Source: Clostridia bacterium (GTDB taxonomy: Bacteria; Bacillota; Clostridia; UBA1381). From it: a stretch of 64,000 nt of DNA. Below, one piece after another: positions 4,428-50,631 of the stretch (position 1 is its first letter; the number at the start of each line of letters is the position of its first letter). A program made the position numbers and the translations under genes. The DNA is taken from NCBI GenBank assembly GCA_017443895.1, contig JAFSXU010000053.1, positions 40,802 through 104,801 of the forward strand, given 5' to 3'. The notes under the pieces are model-generated. The model saw nothing but the letters and a program-made list of their open reading frames with translations. It made no database searches and was not told the DNA's origin.

Positions 4428-5149
4428 AACAGGGCACCTCTCTTTTGCTTTATCTGTTCAAGAAAATACTCCTCCAATGACGGGTATTTTCTCTCTATAT
4501 CCGATACCGTATCCTCTGCGGCTACCTCGCCGTCATACAACACCGCAACACGGTTACATACCTTTTCAAGCTCGGATGCGATATGTGATGAAATAATAAA
4601 GGTCGTTCCTTTTTTGTTTTGCTCCTCTATTATCTCCCTAACGCCCACAACGCCCTCTATATCAAGACCGTTTACAGGCTCGTCTAAAATAACAAGCTCA
4701 GGGTTACCCACAAGTGCCATACTAAGCCCTAACCTTTGCTTCATACCAAGTGAAAACCGTTCCGCGTGGTCATTGGCATACGGTAAAAGTCCGACTGTTT
4801 TTAAAGTTTCCAAGGCTTTTTCCTTATCAACACCGTGCATTCTTGCAACAAGCATAAGATTATCAATTGCCGAGAGCTTTTTATATATCGCAGGCGCCTC
4901 TATCAATGAGCCGACGCTTTTCATAACACGCTCAAAATTATCCTCCGCATCAAGTCCGAAAAGCGTTAGCTCGCCCGAATTTTTCCGTATAAGTCCGCAC
5001 AAAAGCTTCATTATTGTTGTCTTTCCCGAGCCGTTTGGACCAAGCAAGCCCAAAACATCGCCCTTGTTTACACTAATGGTTATGTCCTTTATGCCACGGT
5101 TATTTTTATACAGTTTTTTGACCGCATTTATTCTTACTATTTCCGCCAT
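4424..5149 (-). CDS. ABC transporter ATP-binding protein
   Basis: Walker A GPNGSGKTT, signature FSLGMKQRL, Walker B LVILDEP. Confidence 0.93.
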   Translation of the reverse strand: MAEIVRINAVKKLYKNNRGIKDITISVNKGDVLGLLGPNGSGKTTIMKLLCGLIRKNSGELTLFGLDAEDNFERVMKSVGSLIEAPAIYKKLSAIDNLMLVARMHGVDKEKALETLKTVGLLPYANDHAERFSLGMKQRLGLSMALVGNPELVILDEPVNGLDIEGVVGVREIIEEQNKKGTTFIISSHIASELEKVCNRVAVLYDGEVAAEDTVSDIERKYPSLEEYFLEQIKQKRGALL

Positions 5150-6074: not shown

Positions 6075-6202
6075 ATAAATCCTTCCTTTCGTTATTTGAA
6101 TTTTTAAAAGAGTTGCATCTCTTTAATCCTATATTAAACTGTCTTTATAAAGATTATATAATACAATTCTAAACTTTTTATAAACAAATGAAAATTTTTT
6201 AT

Positions 6203-6222
6203 ATAAATTTTGGTTTACCGCA
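6203..6222. repeat. solo terminal segment of the MITE-like family (ATAAATTTTGGTTTAccGCA)
   Basis: A 15-nt exact match (ATAAATTTTGGTTTA) to the ends of the elements at 29201 and 46392; the copy at 20218 matches from its second base (AAATTTTGGTTTA). Confidence 0.5.
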
Positions 6223-6223
6223 C

Positions 6224-6253
6224 AAAAAAATCCGAAACCTTACGGTTTCGGAT
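6224..6253 (-). terminator. intrinsic terminator of rpmA
   Basis: Stem ATCCGAAACC/GGTTTCGGAT, TTAC loop, and a T7 run on the minus strand. Confidence 0.8.
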
Positions 6254-8116: not shown

Positions 8117-11100
8117 GTGAAAAAGCTGTTATCTGTAATATTATCAATTTCAATCCTTACGGCTCTGGCTCCCTGCACAATTGCTGCCCAAGCCGCAGAC
8201 AATAACGCCAATCAAAATCAAATAAAAAACATAATTTATCTTATTCCCGACGGAGGCGGTTACGGACCTTATGATTTTGCCAATATGGTAAAGGTTGCGG
8301 GCGGATTTAACGAAGAAAAATTCCCAAACAAAACCCCTACCGATACAGAGCCGATGAGTATGCGTGCATGTCTTGCAGGAAGTATGACAACCGCATCCGC
8401 ATCAAGCTCAGTTACCGACTCTGCCGCAGCAGGAACAGCTATGGCTACAGGTTATAAAACCATAAACGGTTTTGTGGGCATTGACAAAAACCTCGTTCCC
8501 AAAGCCAACCTTGTTGAGGCTGCCGAATCTGTAGGTAAGGCAACGGGAATTATTTCTACATATCATTGGTCGCACGCAACACCTGCCACATTCACAGCTC
8601 ACGCAACGGACAGAGGCGATGATTATAATATCTATCAGCAGATAGAAAACAAAGGGCTTGAGGTAGTGCTTGGTGTGGGCTACGGTATGGTATCGCAATA
8701 TGCAACCATACAAAACGCCATAGACAACGGATATACTGTTGTTGAAACAAAGGATGATTTATTAAATGTCAAACCAGGCGACAAAATTTGGGGAAACATC
8801 GCAGAAAAGAATTATCCCTATGATACGCACTTAGGCAAGACACAGGCAACCCTTGCGGAAATGACAAGCGGTGCAATTCGGGCACTTTCGGGAGATCCCG
8901 ACGGTTTCTTCCTTATGGTTGAGGGCGGAAAGGTTGATACAGGCGGACATTCAAACAGCGCTCTTGTAACAACCAGCGAATATCTCGCCTTTGATGCGGC
9001 TTTTAAGGTTGCATTGGACTTTGCAAAAAGCCGTACAGACACAGTTGTAGTCTGCGGTCCCGACCACGACACGGGCGGAATGATTATACCCGACAACCCC
9101 GAAACGGCAGTTTCAGAGGTAATGGACGGAACAGAACCGACAAGCATTTCCTGGACAACGGCAAGCCACACAGGTCAGAATGTAGGAGTATGGGTTTATG
9201 CTCCTGAGGGTGTGGAGTTAATCGAAGGGTTAAATCCCGTTACGGGTGACACTCAAAGCACTCGTGAGGATTATATAATTGATAATACGGCTATTGCGCC
9301 CTGGTGCGCCGATTTTATGGGCGTTAATCTCGACGCTTTATCGGAGGAGCTTTTTGTGAGTGTGTCAAATATCGGAAAATACAGCTCCATTACAAAAAAA
9401 TTTACCTTCAATAACGGCGATAAATATGTATACAGCAATCAGGACGAATACTTTAAAGACGGCGAAAAAATTTCCACAAACGGAAAGACTGCCTTTCAGA
9501 TAAATAATAATTTCTATGTTCCTGCCGAAATGGTGGACAAAGAGGACTGGAATTATGTAACGGAGGTGGAAGCAGGCGACGGCATAACGGGAAAAGGTAC
9601 GGCTTCGGATCCGTATATACTTGACGATGCTTATGACTTTATGGAATTTACAGGTAATATGATTTCGGGAATGAGCTACAAGGGTAAATACATCCGTCAG
9701 ACAAAGGATATTGACTTAACAGCCTTTTCCGATTACCACGGTATCGGCGACGGCGCCACTTTTGCAGGCATATATGACGGAAACGGCAAGAAGATAACCG
9801 TTTCTATAGCATCGGATGCGGATGTTTCCGTGTTCCCCAAGGTAACAGGCGTGCTTATGAATGTGGGTACGGAGGGGACAATTATGTGCACAAAAAGCGA
9901 TGGTTATGCATCGGGTGTGGCATATTATGTAGGCACAGGCGGAAAAATAATAAACTGCTACTCCAATGCGACTATTAAATCATTGTATGCCGCAGGAGGT
10001 ATTACAACATATAACTTCGGTTTGGTCGGAAACTGTTCCTTCTGCGGAGCATTAAGCGGTAGAGCAAGCGTTCCTATAGGAATGGCACGAGGCGATGCAT
10101 ACGAGTTTGTGGAATGTTATTACTTAAAAGGTGTAGGCACTACTTCATTGGATGTAGGCACTGCAACAACCGTAACACAGGCAAAAACTCAATTAGCCGA
10201 TAAGTTAAATTCTAACCGCAAGGGAGCGGCGGCTAAGCTCGGCTACAGCGCCGGCCTTATGTCTTATTGGACTAATGATAACGGCTATCCTGAGCACTAT
10301 GTTCCAAGCCCGACTGTTGATAATATAAGCATAACTCCGCAGGGTGCGGTTGTGGACAAGGGCGACGGCATTTTGCTCTCGGCAACGGTAACAGGTCAGT
10401 TTAATCCCTCAACTGAGGTTACCTGGTCAATTGAGGGCGATGTTTTGGAGGGAACAACCATTGCCTCGGACGGCTTCCTTGTAATAGACAAAAACGAAAC
10501 AGCAACCTCATTTGGTGTTATGGCAAAGTCTAAGCAAGACGGCGGTAAGGCTGCCACTGTAACTATAACTGTAGGTGAAAACACAATTTCCGAGCCTGAC
10601 GGCACTCGCGCCCGTCCGTATTTAATTCAAACAGAAAACGATTTTAAGGCGCTTTGTGACGGTATAACTTCGGGAAATGATTATTCGGGGCTTTATTTCA
10701 GGCAGACAAAAAACATAGATTTAGCAGATTTTAAAGGCTATAACGGTCTTGACAGCAACAAAGTGTTTGCAGGATTTTATGACGGCGCAGGATATACCGT
10801 AAATATTGATATTGTATCAGATACGGACAACTGCTTATTCCCAAGCGTATCGGGAACTGTAATAAACCTGGGCGTAACGGGAAGTGTTAAAAACAAATCC
10901 GTAGCAGGAGCTATATGTTCAACGGTAGCAGAGAACGGAAAGATTGTCAACTGCTGGTCAAATGCATATATAGAGGGTATCAATCCCGGAGGTATTGCTT
11001 CAAACAACCTCGGAACAGTTGCCTCTTGCTTCTTCTTTGGAGAACTAAACGCAAGCTCGGGCAAGGCTTGTGATATTGCAGGTATTGCGCAAAACTCTGT

Positions 11101-11536
11101 AAACCGCAATAACTTCTATATCGGTAACGAATATGTAGAAAGCTCACACAACAGCCAGGTAACAGCTTCTCAGCTAAAAGACGAGATTTCAGGCCTGATA
11201 AATTTGGAGCTTTCAGATACAGCAAAATTCACAAAATTACCAATAAGCGGATTTTCAACCTGGTACTATGCAGACGGAATTTTAAGCTTTGCAAAGGACA
11301 ACACAATGAGTGTTGCCCCCTCCATGACAGTATCCCTTGACGGGAATACAAGCATAGGCACGGTTTATGCAATAATGTATAATGCCGACGGAACACTTTG
11401 CGCAGTTAAGGAATATAAGGCGTCGCAGAATGTTCAAGTTAAATTTGATGCCAATGCAAAAGGCGCATATGTAAAAATAATGTGGTGGCACGGAAATATG
11501 TATCCGATGTGCGCTCCGCAAAAAATTTCTTTATAA
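8117..11536 (+). CDS. secreted alkaline phosphatase fused to two GLUG-type beta-helix modules and a Big_2 Ig-like domain (1139 aa)
   Basis: GTG start with a GGAGG RBS, then a signal peptide. PhoA motifs IPDGGG, VTDSAAAGTAMATGYKT (Ser nucleophile), VDTGGHSN, GPDHDTGG, ASHTG. Two paralogous modules follow (RQTKDIDL...FAGIYDGNGKKI and RQTKNIDL...FAGFYDGAGYTV). Confidence 0.85.
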   Translation: MKKLLSVILSISILTALAPCTIAAQAADNNANQNQIKNIIYLIPDGGGYGPYDFANMVKVAGGFNEEKFPNKTPTDTEPMSMRACLAGSMTTASASSSVTDSAAAGTAMATGYKTINGFVGIDKNLVPKANLVEAAESVGKATGIISTYHWSHATPATFTAHATDRGDDYNIYQQIENKGLEVVLGVGYGMVSQYATIQNAIDNGYTVVETKDDLLNVKPGDKIWGNIAEKNYPYDTHLGKTQATLAEMTSGAIRALSGDPDGFFLMVEGGKVDTGGHSNSALVTTSEYLAFDAAFKVALDFAKSRTDTVVVCGPDHDTGGMIIPDNPETAVSEVMDGTEPTSISWTTASHTGQNVGVWVYAPEGVELIEGLNPVTGDTQSTREDYIIDNTAIAPWCADFMGVNLDALSEELFVSVSNIGKYSSITKKFTFNNGDKYVYSNQDEYFKDGEKISTNGKTAFQINNNFYVPAEMVDKEDWNYVTEVEAGDGITGKGTASDPYILDDAYDFMEFTGNMISGMSYKGKYIRQTKDIDLTAFSDYHGIGDGATFAGIYDGNGKKITVSIASDADVSVFPKVTGVLMNVGTEGTIMCTKSDGYASGVAYYVGTGGKIINCYSNATIKSLYAAGGITTYNFGLVGNCSFCGALSGRASVPIGMARGDAYEFVECYYLKGVGTTSLDVGTATTVTQAKTQLADKLNSNRKGAAAKLGYSAGLMSYWTNDNGYPEHYVPSPTVDNISITPQGAVVDKGDGILLSATVTGQFNPSTEVTWSIEGDVLEGTTIASDGFLVIDKNETATSFGVMAKSKQDGGKAATVTITVGENTISEPDGTRARPYLIQTENDFKALCDGITSGNDYSGLYFRQTKNIDLADFKGYNGLDSNKVFAGFYDGAGYTVNIDIVSDTDNCLFPSVSGTVINLGVTGSVKNKSVAGAICSTVAENGKIVNCWSNAYIEGINPGGIASNNLGTVASCFFFGELNASSGKACDIAGIAQNSVNRNNFYIGNEYVESSHNSQVTASQLKDEISGLINLELSDTAKFTKLPISGFSTWYYADGILSFAKDNTMSVAPSMTVSLDGNTSIGTVYAIMYNADGTLCAVKEYKASQNVQVKFDANAKGAYVKIMWWHGNMYPMCAPQKISL

Positions 11537-48323: not shown

Positions 48324-48467
48324 TTTGGTTAGTCCTCCTTAAAAATATGTCAAATAATTGTACCTACACATTTTCAGGGTATATTGTATACTAAATTATA
48401 TAAATCGTCAAGTTTATACATTATTTTGTAATATTTTTGCTTTAAATCGGTAAAGCATAAAATTTTA

Positions 48468-48496
48468 TTGCATTTGGATAATGGATGTGTTATAAT
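48468..48496 (+). promoter_or_regulatory. near-consensus sigma-A promoter (TTGCAT-17-TATAAT), divergent from mltG, with no ORF downstream
   Basis: TTGCATttggataatggatgtgtTATAAT. Confidence 0.6.
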
Positions 48497-48502
48497 GGTT
48501 TT

Positions 48503-48698
48503 GCCAAACTAATTGAATATTTTTAACAAGGACTTTTTTTTGCTATTTTTAAAAAAGTTTTATTGCCGTAGAACAATTTGCTAAAACTGCAAATCCTAAC
48601 GGCAATAGAACAATTCTATATCCTTGTTAATCGATTAGTTTGGCGACTATCGGGGTTTGCGTTTTGATGCGTCGGCTCCGGTTGGCGCATTTTTTATT
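48503..48698 (+). ncRNA. candidate ~195-nt structured sRNA (long bulged hairpin plus intrinsic terminator; 6S-like shape, identity unknown)
   Basis: Hand fold: 48503-16 pairs with 48631-44, 48523-32 with 48621-30, 48561-69 with 48599-607, and 48576-81 with 48589-94. Terminator 48667-76/48681-90 followed by a T-run. Confidence 0.5.
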
Positions 48699-48876
48699 TG
48701 CAAGTAAAGCGGTAAGGAGGTTTTTATTGGATTTGGCAGGTAAAAAAGCGTAAAAATGCTGTGGTTTTGGATAATAAAAACTTACTTGAAATTTAAACAG
48801 AAAAATACTATGAATATTCGTATTACGAATAAATTAAAAAATCCAAAATTCGGTATATCCGATTATTCGCCAAATG

Positions 48877-48950
48877 ATTTTAACAAAAAAACACAGCCCT
48901 GCACACCGTTTTATGCAGGGCTGTTTTATTTAGCTTATAAATTCTTGCGA
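48877..48950. repeat. 74-bp direct repeat, copy A (bidirectional terminator hairpin plus a relic of the last 6 codons and stop of the CAP-domain gene)
   Basis: About 90% identical to 49814-49887. Hairpin ACAGCCCTGCA/TGCAGGGCTGT. Confidence 0.85.
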
Positions 48951-48996
48951 TGTTTAACAATAGCTGATTATCACAAATCTTTTTACCGAAAATTTA

Positions 48997-49025
48997 TTGA
49001 CATATTTTATAGTTTTTAGTATAAT
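48997..49025 (+). promoter_or_regulatory. consensus sigma-A promoter (TTGACA-17-TATAAT) of the cassette
   Basis: TTGACAtattttatagtttttagTATAAT. Confidence 0.65.
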
Positions 49026-49031
49026 AATATT

Positions 49032-49212
49032 AGCAACAGGCAACAGGTGTGTCTGTTAAAGCGGTGAAGCGAAAGGCTGTGTCAGCAATCAGTGTTTTGC
49101 GGAGCTTCGGGCGGGTTGTATGTGTAAACCGCAAGCTGACTTTATGCACACAGGATGTGCAGACAGAAAACATTCAAAGCTCTGCCTTTTTTCGAGGCAG
49201 AGCTTTTCTTAT
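49032..49212 (+). ncRNA. ~180-nt structured leader or independent RNA ending in a strong intrinsic terminator, directly upstream of the PBECR4-like gene
   Basis: Nested helices by hand: 49050-55/49160-65, 49077-86/49135-40 plus 49150-53, and 49097-102/49129-34. Terminator AAAGCTCTGCC/GGCAGAGCTTT at 49176-49206. Confidence 0.5.
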
Positions 49213-49232
49213 GTATGCAAACGGAGGAAAGT

Positions 49233-49814
49233 ATGGACAAGCTACAACAGAGAGCTTTTTTATTCAAAAGGCTATTGGACTATGAATATAAAATTATATT
49301 AGGAAGAAAAGGCAAAAAGACGGAATTTGTTATAACCTTTGAAAAATCCGATTTTCCGCACATTATAGGATTACACAAGCTGACAGATGTATTAAACGGC
49401 AATATCTCTACCGAAAAGCTGTTTGATCAATGTTTGAAAGGTAAGGTTTCTTATGACTTAATTTCACAAAGTGAATTTTTCCCAAAACTCGGAAACAGAT
49501 TTGAATATTTCGACAAACTTGAAACAATGCTCGACAGCAACGATATAATATTCAAATGCAACAATAAGAATATGGCTGCATTTTCAAAAATAATTGCAGA
49601 TTTTGAGCTGAAAAATATATATGAAGAACTCATTTTTTACTTGTTTATCGAAAAAAGAAATTATTCCGATAAACAATACTGTAAATCTTTTATACAAGAA
49701 AACAAAATAGATTATACATACGGTCAAACAAAAATGACCTTGCTTTACAAAGAAAAAATAAATAAAGTAACAGGCAAATCCCAAATTCAGTATAACCGCC
49801 TATCCAGAAAATAA
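49233..49814 (+). CDS. stand-alone PBECR4-like (barnase/EndoU/colicin-E5/RelE-fold) putative RNase, 193 aa
   Basis: GGAGG RBS then ATG at 49233. MDKLQQRAFLFKRLLDYEYKIILGRKGKKTEFVITFEKSDFPHIIGLHKLTD... This resembles PBECR4 members as I remember them; not verified by an HMM search. Confidence 0.45.
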   Translation: MDKLQQRAFLFKRLLDYEYKIILGRKGKKTEFVITFEKSDFPHIIGLHKLTDVLNGNISTEKLFDQCLKGKVSYDLISQSEFFPKLGNRFEYFDKLETMLDSNDIIFKCNNKNMAAFSKIIADFELKNIYEELIFYLFIEKRNYSDKQYCKSFIQENKIDYTYGQTKMTLLYKEKINKVTGKSQIQYNRLSRK

Positions 49815-49887
49815 TTTTAACAAAAAAGCTACAGCCCTGCACACCATATATGCAAGGCTGTTTTATTTAGCTTATAAATTCTTGCGA
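49814..49887. repeat. 74-bp direct repeat, copy B (functional terminator plus the true 3' end of the CAP-domain gene)
   Basis: See copy A. The two copies are offset by exactly 937 bp. Confidence 0.85.
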
Positions 49888-50631
49888 CCAGTAATATGTG
49901 CTTCCCGACTTATAACAGCCTACACCTATTTTTGTGAAATTGCCATTCAGGATATTCGCCCTATGTCCCTCGGAATTCATCCATGCTGTTACAACAGCTT
50001 GCGGCGTTCTTTGTCCGTATGCAATATTTTCACCTGCTGATCTGTAGTTTATTCCGTACTCTTTTAAAACCGTAAAGCAACTTGTGCCGTTTGGTCTGGT
50101 ATGCGAAAAGCTTGTTTTTATCTCCTTTGCTCTTGCATATGACGCTCTCATAAGCGTTGTATCGACCTGTAAATTACCCAAACCGTATTTTGCACGCTCC
50201 TTATTTACCAAATCCACAACCTCTAAGGCATATTTATCCTCCTCGGATGCGGTTTGCGCCTGTGGAGTAGGTGTCACGATTGGTTTTTGTGTAACCTGTG
50301 GCGTTACGGTTACCTGTGGCGTTGCCGTTACCTGTGGCTTTGGTGTTGCCTGTGGTTTTTGTGTCGTCTGAGGTGTTACGGTTACCTCAGTATTATTCTG
50401 TTCCTCCTTTTGATTACATGTATCGGTATCACAAATATTATCAATATGTATACCCATCTGCTCCAATATGTCACAGAGCGAATTTACATCTAACTGTCGG
50501 CAACTCTGTGTTTTTTGGTTTAGCAAATTGAATATATTTGTGCAATCAATACTTCCGTTTTGATTAGCGACACCCGCACTGCCACAACACGCAACAGCCG
50601 TTGCCACTACCCATGACGGGATTATAGCCAT
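49867..50631 (-). CDS. CAP/SCP/PR1-like (YkwD-type) domain protein with Cys-rich N-terminus and xTxxPQ hexapeptide linker
   Basis: C-terminal CAP domain (VNKERAKYGL..., NIAYGQ, WMNSEGHRANIL, GVGCY). Confidence 0.8.
   Translation of the reverse strand: MAIIPSWVVATAVACCGSAGVANQNGSIDCTNIFNLLNQKTQSCRQLDVNSLCDILEQMGIHIDNICDTDTCNQKEEQNNTEVTVTPQTTQKPQATPKPQVTATPQVTVTPQVTQKPIVTPTPQAQTASEEDKYALEVVDLVNKERAKYGLGNLQVDTTLMRASYARAKEIKTSFSHTRPNGTSCFTVLKEYGINYRSAGENIAYGQRTPQAVVTAWMNSEGHRANILNGNFTKIGVGCYKSGSTYYWSQEFIS
50253..50390. repeat. ~7 tandem 18-bp units inside the CAP gene encoding (V/A)T(V/A/Q)(T/K)PQ repeats
   Basis: GTTACCTGTGGCGTTRCN-like units, read directly from the sequence. Confidence 0.8.

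Follow-up and report, generated by a model that had tools for sequence, protein, structure and literature searches.

What does a lone gene for a predicted RNase do behind a structured RNA that has its own terminator? A compact cassette raises this question in a 64-kb stretch of DNA from a Clostridia bacterium (contig JAFSXU010000053.1), which we call the window. Coordinates are positions in the window unless a comparison locus is named, and L-numbers denote the comparison loci that we fetched. A preliminary description, made from the sequence alone, had listed a promoter, a structured RNA, a terminator, and a gene for a PBECR4-like protein. Sequence reading and consensus scans of positions 48600 to 50400 found all of its elements where it had placed them. 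We identify the RNA as a member of the drum motif and the protein as a member of the Pfam family PBECR4. In our estimation, there is about an even chance that the cassette is a two-part RNA-protein module working like a type III toxin-antitoxin or abortive-infection system, with drum as the antidote and PBECR4 as the toxin.

The drum RNA and its PBECR4 gene

The cassette opens with a sigma-70-type promoter, TTGACA-17-TATAAT (48997-49025, plus strand), which matches the consensus at 12 of 12 positions. All of the elements that follow it are on the same strand. The RNA ends in an intrinsic terminator with a 13-bp G+C-rich stem and a 5-nucleotide (nt) loop (49176-49206), the interrupted U-tract of which, TTTTCTTAT, runs to 49213. 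Next come a GGAGG ribosome-binding site (49223-49227), with similar sites in homologous loci, and a 193-amino-acid (aa) open reading frame (ORF) that starts with the ATG at 49233 and ends at 49814. This start, proposed in the preliminary description, agrees with a conserved M-D-K N terminus, and the homologue alignment begins at M1-D2-K3. Longer ORFs that open inside the RNA, such as 49155-49814, are artefacts, because the alignment begins at the 49233 start. The ATG follows the terminator by only 26 nt, in which sequence reading found no promoter. Therefore, the terminator probably ends a short drum transcript, and read-through is predicted to be the sole route to PBECR4 expression.

The RNA had been taken for a new kind, but the Rfam scan identified it as a known one. 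Positions 49059-49178 match the drum motif (RF02958) with 76.8 bits (gathering score, 43; E, 3e-14) over model positions 1-112 of 112, and this was the sole Rfam match in the window. The core contains helices P1 to P4 and a pseudoknot, GTCAGC/GCTGAC (49081-49086 with 49135-49140), the first arm of which is the P2 loop. The three features by which we tested drum membership are all present: the score over the full length, covarying helices with the pseudoknot, and a 3' Rho-independent terminator. Upstream of the core, and outside the Rfam model, is a conserved 5' hairpin that we call P0 (49036-49056; ACAGGC/GTCTGT, loop AACAGGTGT).

We tested the structure with 87 distinct sequences, each with a 30-nt 5' extension, and used as controls the same helices with partners slid by 1 to 3 columns. 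The named drum structure was paired in 85% of cells, compared with 33-39% in the slid-register controls. The pseudoknot was 95% paired and P0 was 86% paired, both with compensatory changes at 6 of 6 pairs. The structured RNA suspected upstream of the gene is thus supported by both the Rfam match and covariation. The conserved RNA extends 5' of the Rfam model, by P0, and covariation supports its pseudoknot. Because P0 covaries, the functional RNA must begin close to the predicted transcription start, no more than a few nucleotides away. Its length, terminator included, is about 175-180 nt, as had been estimated. The RNA has long invariant single-stranded tracts, such as GAAAGAAAA and GGGUU.

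Four degenerate sequence recurrences had also been reported in the RNA. Tandem Repeats Finder found no tandem repeat array in the leader, only two copies of the 7-mer GCAACAG, and the four strings sit in different drum helices. Therefore, they are chance similarities. An antitoxin made of a repeat array is ruled out, because there is no array and drum is a single complex fold.

In the window, the terminator stem begins 3' of the last drum pair, and the minimum-free-energy fold contains both this stem and the drum structure. The arrangement differs in a divergent clade (L064 to L067; about positions 4940-5000 in L064), in which the 5' arm of the terminator, AAATGCTTGC, doubles as the 3' end of the drum fold. 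There, fold and terminator are therefore mutually exclusive, as in a riboswitch. This overlap occurs only in L064 to L067 and was not seen in the clade of the window. We also noted two other variants. L061 carries, between the terminator of drum and the start of PBECR4, an insert of about 420 nt (4691-5111) that is G+C rich and has a high degree of predicted structure. L012 and L013 have a weak second drum-like match (6138-6235; E, about 0.03) about 0.55 kb downstream of PBECR4, which may be a degenerate or divergent second RNA.

The protein had been called PBECR4-like, and a Pfam search agreed. The 193-aa sequence matches PBECR4 (PF18813) with 119.1 bits (gathering cut-off, 27; E, 3.9e-34) over profile positions 1-187 of 188. 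PBECR domains are predicted metal-independent RNases of conflict systems, with an N-terminal histidine and a C-terminal serine or threonine (Iyer et al. 2017, PMC5512222). In the homologue alignment, H43, K49, D52, R89, E97, D101, N103, S118, Q165, K173, and K175 are invariant, and S152 and T169 are, like S118, invariant or nearly so. An AlphaFold2 model from 56 sequences was confident (pLDDT, 91; pTM, 0.85). Among predicted viral structures, two unnamed proteins matched it (E, 6e-9 and 3e-7; TM score, about 0.6), and polyvalent and minor-capsid (MuF-like) phage proteins matched it weakly. These matches are consistent with the PBECR family of Iyer et al. A search of PHROGs gave one weak match only, to a family with no assigned function. 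Following the published prediction for its family, we regard PBECR4 as a predicted metal-independent RNase of the BECR fold.

Co-occurrence and its asymmetry

A first protein search found 196 detectable relatives, each about 190 aa long and with a single domain. When 1.84 billion representatives were searched with a profile, 940 clusters (50% identity) had an E value of 1e-10 or below. We fetched 76 genomic loci from uncultured Clostridia (Oscillospiraceae, Lachnospiraceae, and others), which together with the window made 77 sources. Rfam drum reached the gathering score in 13 of 14 and in 19 of 19 loci. A custom covariance model, built from these Rfam-positive matches and run on the 77 sources, found drum in 71, always on the same strand as the gene and ending about 45-60 nt before the start codon. 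Of the six sources without drum, three have the gene at a contig edge and two have only a fragment of it; the sixth is L007, a PBECR4 pseudogene truncated at its 5' end, with its upstream region replaced. Therefore, drum is directly upstream of the gene in 71 of 71 evaluable loci, and we found no intact PBECR4 without it. This bears out the expectation in the preliminary description that the RNA would be conserved with the gene. Two viral PBECR4 relatives still have drum at 33% and 26% protein identity. PBECR4 of this clade is rare in viral contigs, with four distant relatives.

Conservation extends to the expression signals. In 62 of 70 loci, a promoter that matches the consensus at 10 or more of 12 positions is present at a fixed distance (12 of 12 in 31 of these), and in 67 of 71 a hairpin with a T-rich tail, resembling a terminator, follows drum. 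No protein partner is conserved. When we clustered about 700 neighbouring ORFs from 63 loci, no family occurred in more than 7 loci. The absence of an adjacent protein antitoxin, noted earlier for the window, thus extends to its relatives. The same clustering found no recombinase within the cassette or consistently beside it.

Two cassettes can occupy one genome. L037 and L047 lie 24 kb apart on one contig, and their proteins are 72% identical, but the P2 and pseudoknot sequences of their RNAs are clearly different. They could be two non-cross-reacting RNA-protein pairs.

We also started from the RNA, by scanning viral and metagenomic contigs with a degenerate drum pattern; the counts that follow are samples among the matches listed. 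The covariance model supports at least 45 viral and at least 48 metagenomic copies. Among the 46 evaluable metagenomic copies listed, 22 have an intact PBECR4 ORF 48-77 nt downstream, 7 have a disrupted one (four 3' truncations, one internal deletion, and two stop codons or frameshifts), and 17 have none within 2.5 kb. About half of the drum copies listed in the RNA-first searches are therefore without an intact PBECR4. In the viral sample, 9 of the listed copies accompany PBECR4, and at least 21 strong matches, which represent about 10 distinct phage groups, lack PBECR4 on both strands within 2.5 kb. A Pfam search of 62 ORFs neighbouring these viral stand-alone copies found no PBECR family. 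Their neighbours include HipA (twice), Abi_2, AIPR, an AAA_21 ATPase, IS200 TnpA, Rha, holin, portal, and integrase.

Taken with the protein-first counts, these results indicate that the RNA often persists or travels alone but the intact gene never does. By a rough estimate in which loss is free and scaled by length, about 5-19 of the 71 intact genes would be expected to be drum-less, and the observed number is 0.

Among the matches listed, stand-alone drum copies are common in phage or prophage contigs (L091, L105, L121, L126, L146, L150, L155, L156, and L164 and their relatives). They often adjoin genes of toxin or abortive-infection type or the lysis-module end of a prophage. Viral contig L150 has two different copies on the minus strand, about 0.8 kb apart (10537-10646 and 11321-11432), one of which is directly preceded by an apparent tRNA 3' end (GGTTCAAATCCCAC...CCA).

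Flanking repeats and insertion

The next gene downstream of PBECR4 is, as first described, a convergent CAP-domain gene (49867-50631, minus strand; confirmed by Pfam). Five in-frame 18-nt tandem repeats within it (50259-50387) encode a linker rich in Thr, Pro, Gln, and Val. The 3' end of this gene takes part in a direct repeat that flanks the cassette. Direct repeats do bracket the unit, as had been reported, but alignment gives a length of about 123 nt rather than 74 bp. The upstream copy (48828-48950) aligns to 49761-49887. It consists of a remnant of a PBECR4 3' end with a broken frame (48828-48877, plus strand), an A-tract and bidirectional terminator (48893-48924), and a copy of the last CAP codons (48926-48950, minus strand). 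The downstream copy holds the 3' end of PBECR4 itself, a bidirectional terminator (49831-49861), and the true CAP 3' end. The last 17 or so PBECR4 codons are about 81% identical between the copies, and the last CAP codons are 97-100% identical.

A sister species (L330; MltG, 86% identical) has CAP and mltG adjacent, with 187 nt and a single bidirectional terminator between them. This terminator and the CAP end are homologous to both copies in the window, where the interval is 1543 nt. Homology to L330 is regained at about 48460 towards mltG and at 49875 towards CAP. Therefore, about 1.35 kb has been inserted. The insertion duplicated about 70 nt of resident sequence, made up of the A-tract, the terminator, and the last codons of CAP. 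The extra 50 nt or so of repeat, at 81% identity, is probably the 3' end of a second, older PBECR4 copy, the body of which is gone. We found no empty site in the same species. Of 11 contigs with an identical CAP protein that we read, the 8 listed as reaching past the CAP 3' end all carry PBECR4. The sister species, reached by way of its MltG homologue, gave the only empty site.

Duplications of local sequence, 26-123 nt long, flank the cassette in 9 of 62 loci (the window, L006, L009, L011, L035, L037, L045, L064, and L065), and the other 53 have no flanking repeat. In the eight loci other than the window, the repeats are of local host sequence and measure 26-104 nt. In L006, L009, L011, L037, and L064, 10-60 nt separate the upstream copy from the -35 element, and the downstream copy either begins at the PBECR4 stop codon or overlaps it. 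What has been duplicated is a host terminator in L006, and in L064 and L065 it is the 3' end of the upstream host gene. This pattern suggests that insertion has recurred, often at terminators or at the 3' ends of genes, with target duplications that are long and variable. The cassette is thus an inserted, mobile unit. It may have arrived by a single crossover of the Campbell type, by illegitimate recombination, or by a mechanism particular to the module.

A second inserted unit lies just upstream, at 48461-48830. It shares the promoter-RNA-terminator-ribosome-binding site layout of the drum cassette: a promoter-like TTGCAT-17-TATAAT (48469-48497), a very stable, extended hairpin of about 150 nt (the fold of 48498-48700 has -70 kcal/mol and a z score of -8.1), its own terminator (48666-48691), and then AAGGAGG and an 8-codon ORF. 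It had no Rfam match and, among 335 fetched loci, no relatives outside the same species. Several metagenome contigs of the window species break within it.

A proposed RNA antidote, its rivals, and known systems

How might such a cassette work? The strong, constitutive promoter would drive a transcript of about 175 nt that runs from the 5' hairpin through the pseudoknotted core of drum to the terminator. Most transcripts would end at the terminator, leaving drum RNA in excess, and a minority would read through and be translated into PBECR4. Drum would bind the predicted RNase and hold it inactive. If transcription of the cassette stopped or the RNA was degraded, for example upon phage infection or cassette loss, the longer-lived nuclease would be freed and the cell arrested. 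Stand-alone drum copies, phage borne or chromosomal, would then be antidote-only copies with an anti-defence or anti-addiction role. Our data show how the cassette is built, that its two parts strictly co-occur, how the RNA folds, that the unit was inserted, and that loss is asymmetric; the RNase activity, the toxicity, the binding of RNA to protein, and the trigger are the parts of this account that we infer. The layout, the conserved terminator, the asymmetric loss, the absence of any conserved protein partner, and the occurrence of drum alone in phage accessory regions together make an RNA antitoxin with an RNase toxin the best fit. The cassette also behaves like a selfish or defence-island element, being inserted, present twice in one genome, and found in varied contexts.

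Several points weigh against this reading. Toxicity, RNase activity, and RNA binding are only predicted for drum-PBECR4. The BECR fold is likewise a prediction without support from a solved structure: Foldseek found no significant PDB match to the AlphaFold2 model (best E, 0.3; TM score, below 0.25), and a profile search (hmmsearch) of PDB sequences found no match to the protein. The PADLOC and NCBIfam libraries gave no match either. Unlike an antitoxin repeat array that its toxin processes, drum is one complex RNA. The gene is about four times as long as the RNA, and target size alone predicts part of the loss asymmetry. Lastly, stand-alone copies adjoin other genes that resemble toxins, so drum could have some function that does not involve PBECR4.

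Drum might instead work together with PBECR4 in a positive role, for example as cofactor, guide, sensor, or scaffold in an active ribonucleoprotein, with the nuclease needing the RNA to find or recognise its target. Strict co-occurrence and the single-operon layout fit this equally well, as does a complex and highly conserved fold with long invariant single-stranded tracts. There is also the example of HEARO, an earlier gene-linked orphan RNA that turned out to be a guide RNA. Moreover, the passages on drum in Weinberg et al. (PMC5737381) describe a fold more elaborate than a simple binding site requires. However, if this were its role, RNA without the protein should be useless, yet high-scoring intact drum without PBECR4 is common, including in about 10 phage groups. 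PBECR4 without drum would be harmless, yet an intact drum-less gene was never seen. Nor is a guide-like variable segment evident among the 87 sequences, in which the variable parts are paired stems that covary. We consider a positive role unlikely but worth keeping in view. A bolder form, in which drum programmes PBECR4 as the sensing or guiding RNA of an RNA-dependent nuclease, phage drum copies are decoys, and insertion with target duplication is an activity of the module, strikes us as a long shot.

The preliminary description had offered a novel riboswitch or attenuator as its alternative. Drum would then be a cis-acting leader, responsive to a ligand or protein, that tunes read-through of the terminator and hence PBECR4 expression. 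Drum does lie in the 5' leader in all 71 PBECR4 loci, mostly with a terminator after it (67 of 71), its 3' tract AAGAAAA is complementary to the terminator tail TTTTCTT, and the folds of L064 to L067 are mutually exclusive. In the clade of the window, however, no terminator competes with the conserved fold, because the terminator stem at 49176-49206 lies 3' of the final drum pair. Many drum copies precede no gene that they could regulate or lie beside unrelated genes (17 of 46 metagenomic and at least 21 viral copies, among the matches listed), so that the consistent placement in a 5' untranslated region expected of a riboswitch holds for PBECR4 loci but fails for stand-alone copies. Weinberg et al. 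(PMC5737381), in their passages on drum, likewise consider it an improbable riboswitch or ribozyme. A leader role is thus distinctly unlikely as the main function, given a terminator outside the conserved fold and an RNA that often stands alone. Cis and trans roles would nevertheless be compatible, by analogy with the RCd22 RNA described below, which does both.

It is also conceivable, but highly improbable, that drum and PBECR4 form a self-mobilising element in which the RNA helps insertion next to terminators and gene ends. The cassette is an insertion with local duplications in 9 of 62 loci, the downstream copy meets the PBECR4 stop codon in five of them, and no recombinase is there to do the work. 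But PBECR4 is predicted to be a metal-independent RNase and not a DNA transposase, and 53 of 62 loci have no flanking repeat. The duplications also differ greatly in both length and identity, for which a dedicated enzyme is a poorer explanation than homologous (Campbell-type) or illegitimate recombination.

If the antidote reading is true, a large family of about 940 protein clusters would be added to the RNA-antitoxin systems, and gut Clostridia would provide a new example of phage counter-defence by antitoxin mimicry. The literature searched contains no later functional study of drum and no report of its function. In the parts of their paper that concern it, the discoverers counted drum among the few widespread bacterial RNAs that are complex enough to suggest a sophisticated function (Weinberg et al. 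2017). This long-standing orphan now gains a specific and cheaply testable hypothesis, because it has a predicted-RNase partner, the operon logic of ToxIN and AbiF-RCd22, a gene that is never intact without it, and phages that carry only the RNA.

The link between RNA and gene is already known. As characterized in the sections on drum in Weinberg et al. (2017, PMC5737381), the motif is followed by a terminator, is linked to a nearby protein gene, and has no known function. The window is a new instance, a full-length and high-scoring member with the published terminator and gene linkage, and the associated gene is identified here as PBECR4; the main text of that paper does not name a partner protein. 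Our loci differ in having an extra 5' hairpin outside the Rfam model and a gene that is always downstream on the same strand, whereas the published account describes genes on either side and in either orientation. The protein resembles the PBECR domains of Iyer et al. (PMC5512222) in its PF18813 membership and its conserved N-terminal histidine and C-terminal serine or threonine. Unlike those domains of virion-packaged polyvalent proteins, it is a stand-alone chromosomal protein of about 190 aa with an obligatory RNA partner.

Among type III systems, ToxIN, CptIN, and TenpIN share the layout of the cassette, as the preliminary description had recognized: one promoter, an RNA gene, a terminator that keeps the RNA in excess, and lastly the gene for an endoribonuclease toxin (a predicted toxin here). 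In ToxIN, the terminator sets the excess of antitoxin RNA over toxin. These systems are also small, self-contained cassettes that have spread horizontally. Phages reportedly escape ToxIN by means of antitoxin-like RNAs. In contrast to these systems, drum has no tandem array of short repeats, processing of the RNA by the toxin has no support in the drum cassette, and the protein is PBECR4, with no match of ToxN/AbiQ, CptN, or TenpN type (Pfam found only PBECR4, and PADLOC nothing).

The AbiF/RCd22 system of Clostridioides difficile (PMC12373285) has a SigA promoter, a structured and non-repetitive noncoding RNA, a terminator, no second promoter, and then a ribosome-binding site and toxin gene. 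It makes both short, terminated transcripts and long, read-through ones, and RCd22 neutralises the AbiF toxin by direct binding, in cis and in trans. The drum cassette has the same layout, and both RNAs come from the 2017 motif survey. The components differ, with the abiF motif (RF03085) in place of drum and Abi_2 (HEPN-like) in place of PBECR4; Pfam and Rfam scans of the window matched neither an Abi_2 domain nor an abiF RNA. Because it has no repeat array and no ToxN or Abi_2 protein, we describe the drum-PBECR4 cassette as working like these systems rather than as a member of the ToxIN or AbiF families. ToxIN and especially AbiF/RCd22 are its closest precedents.

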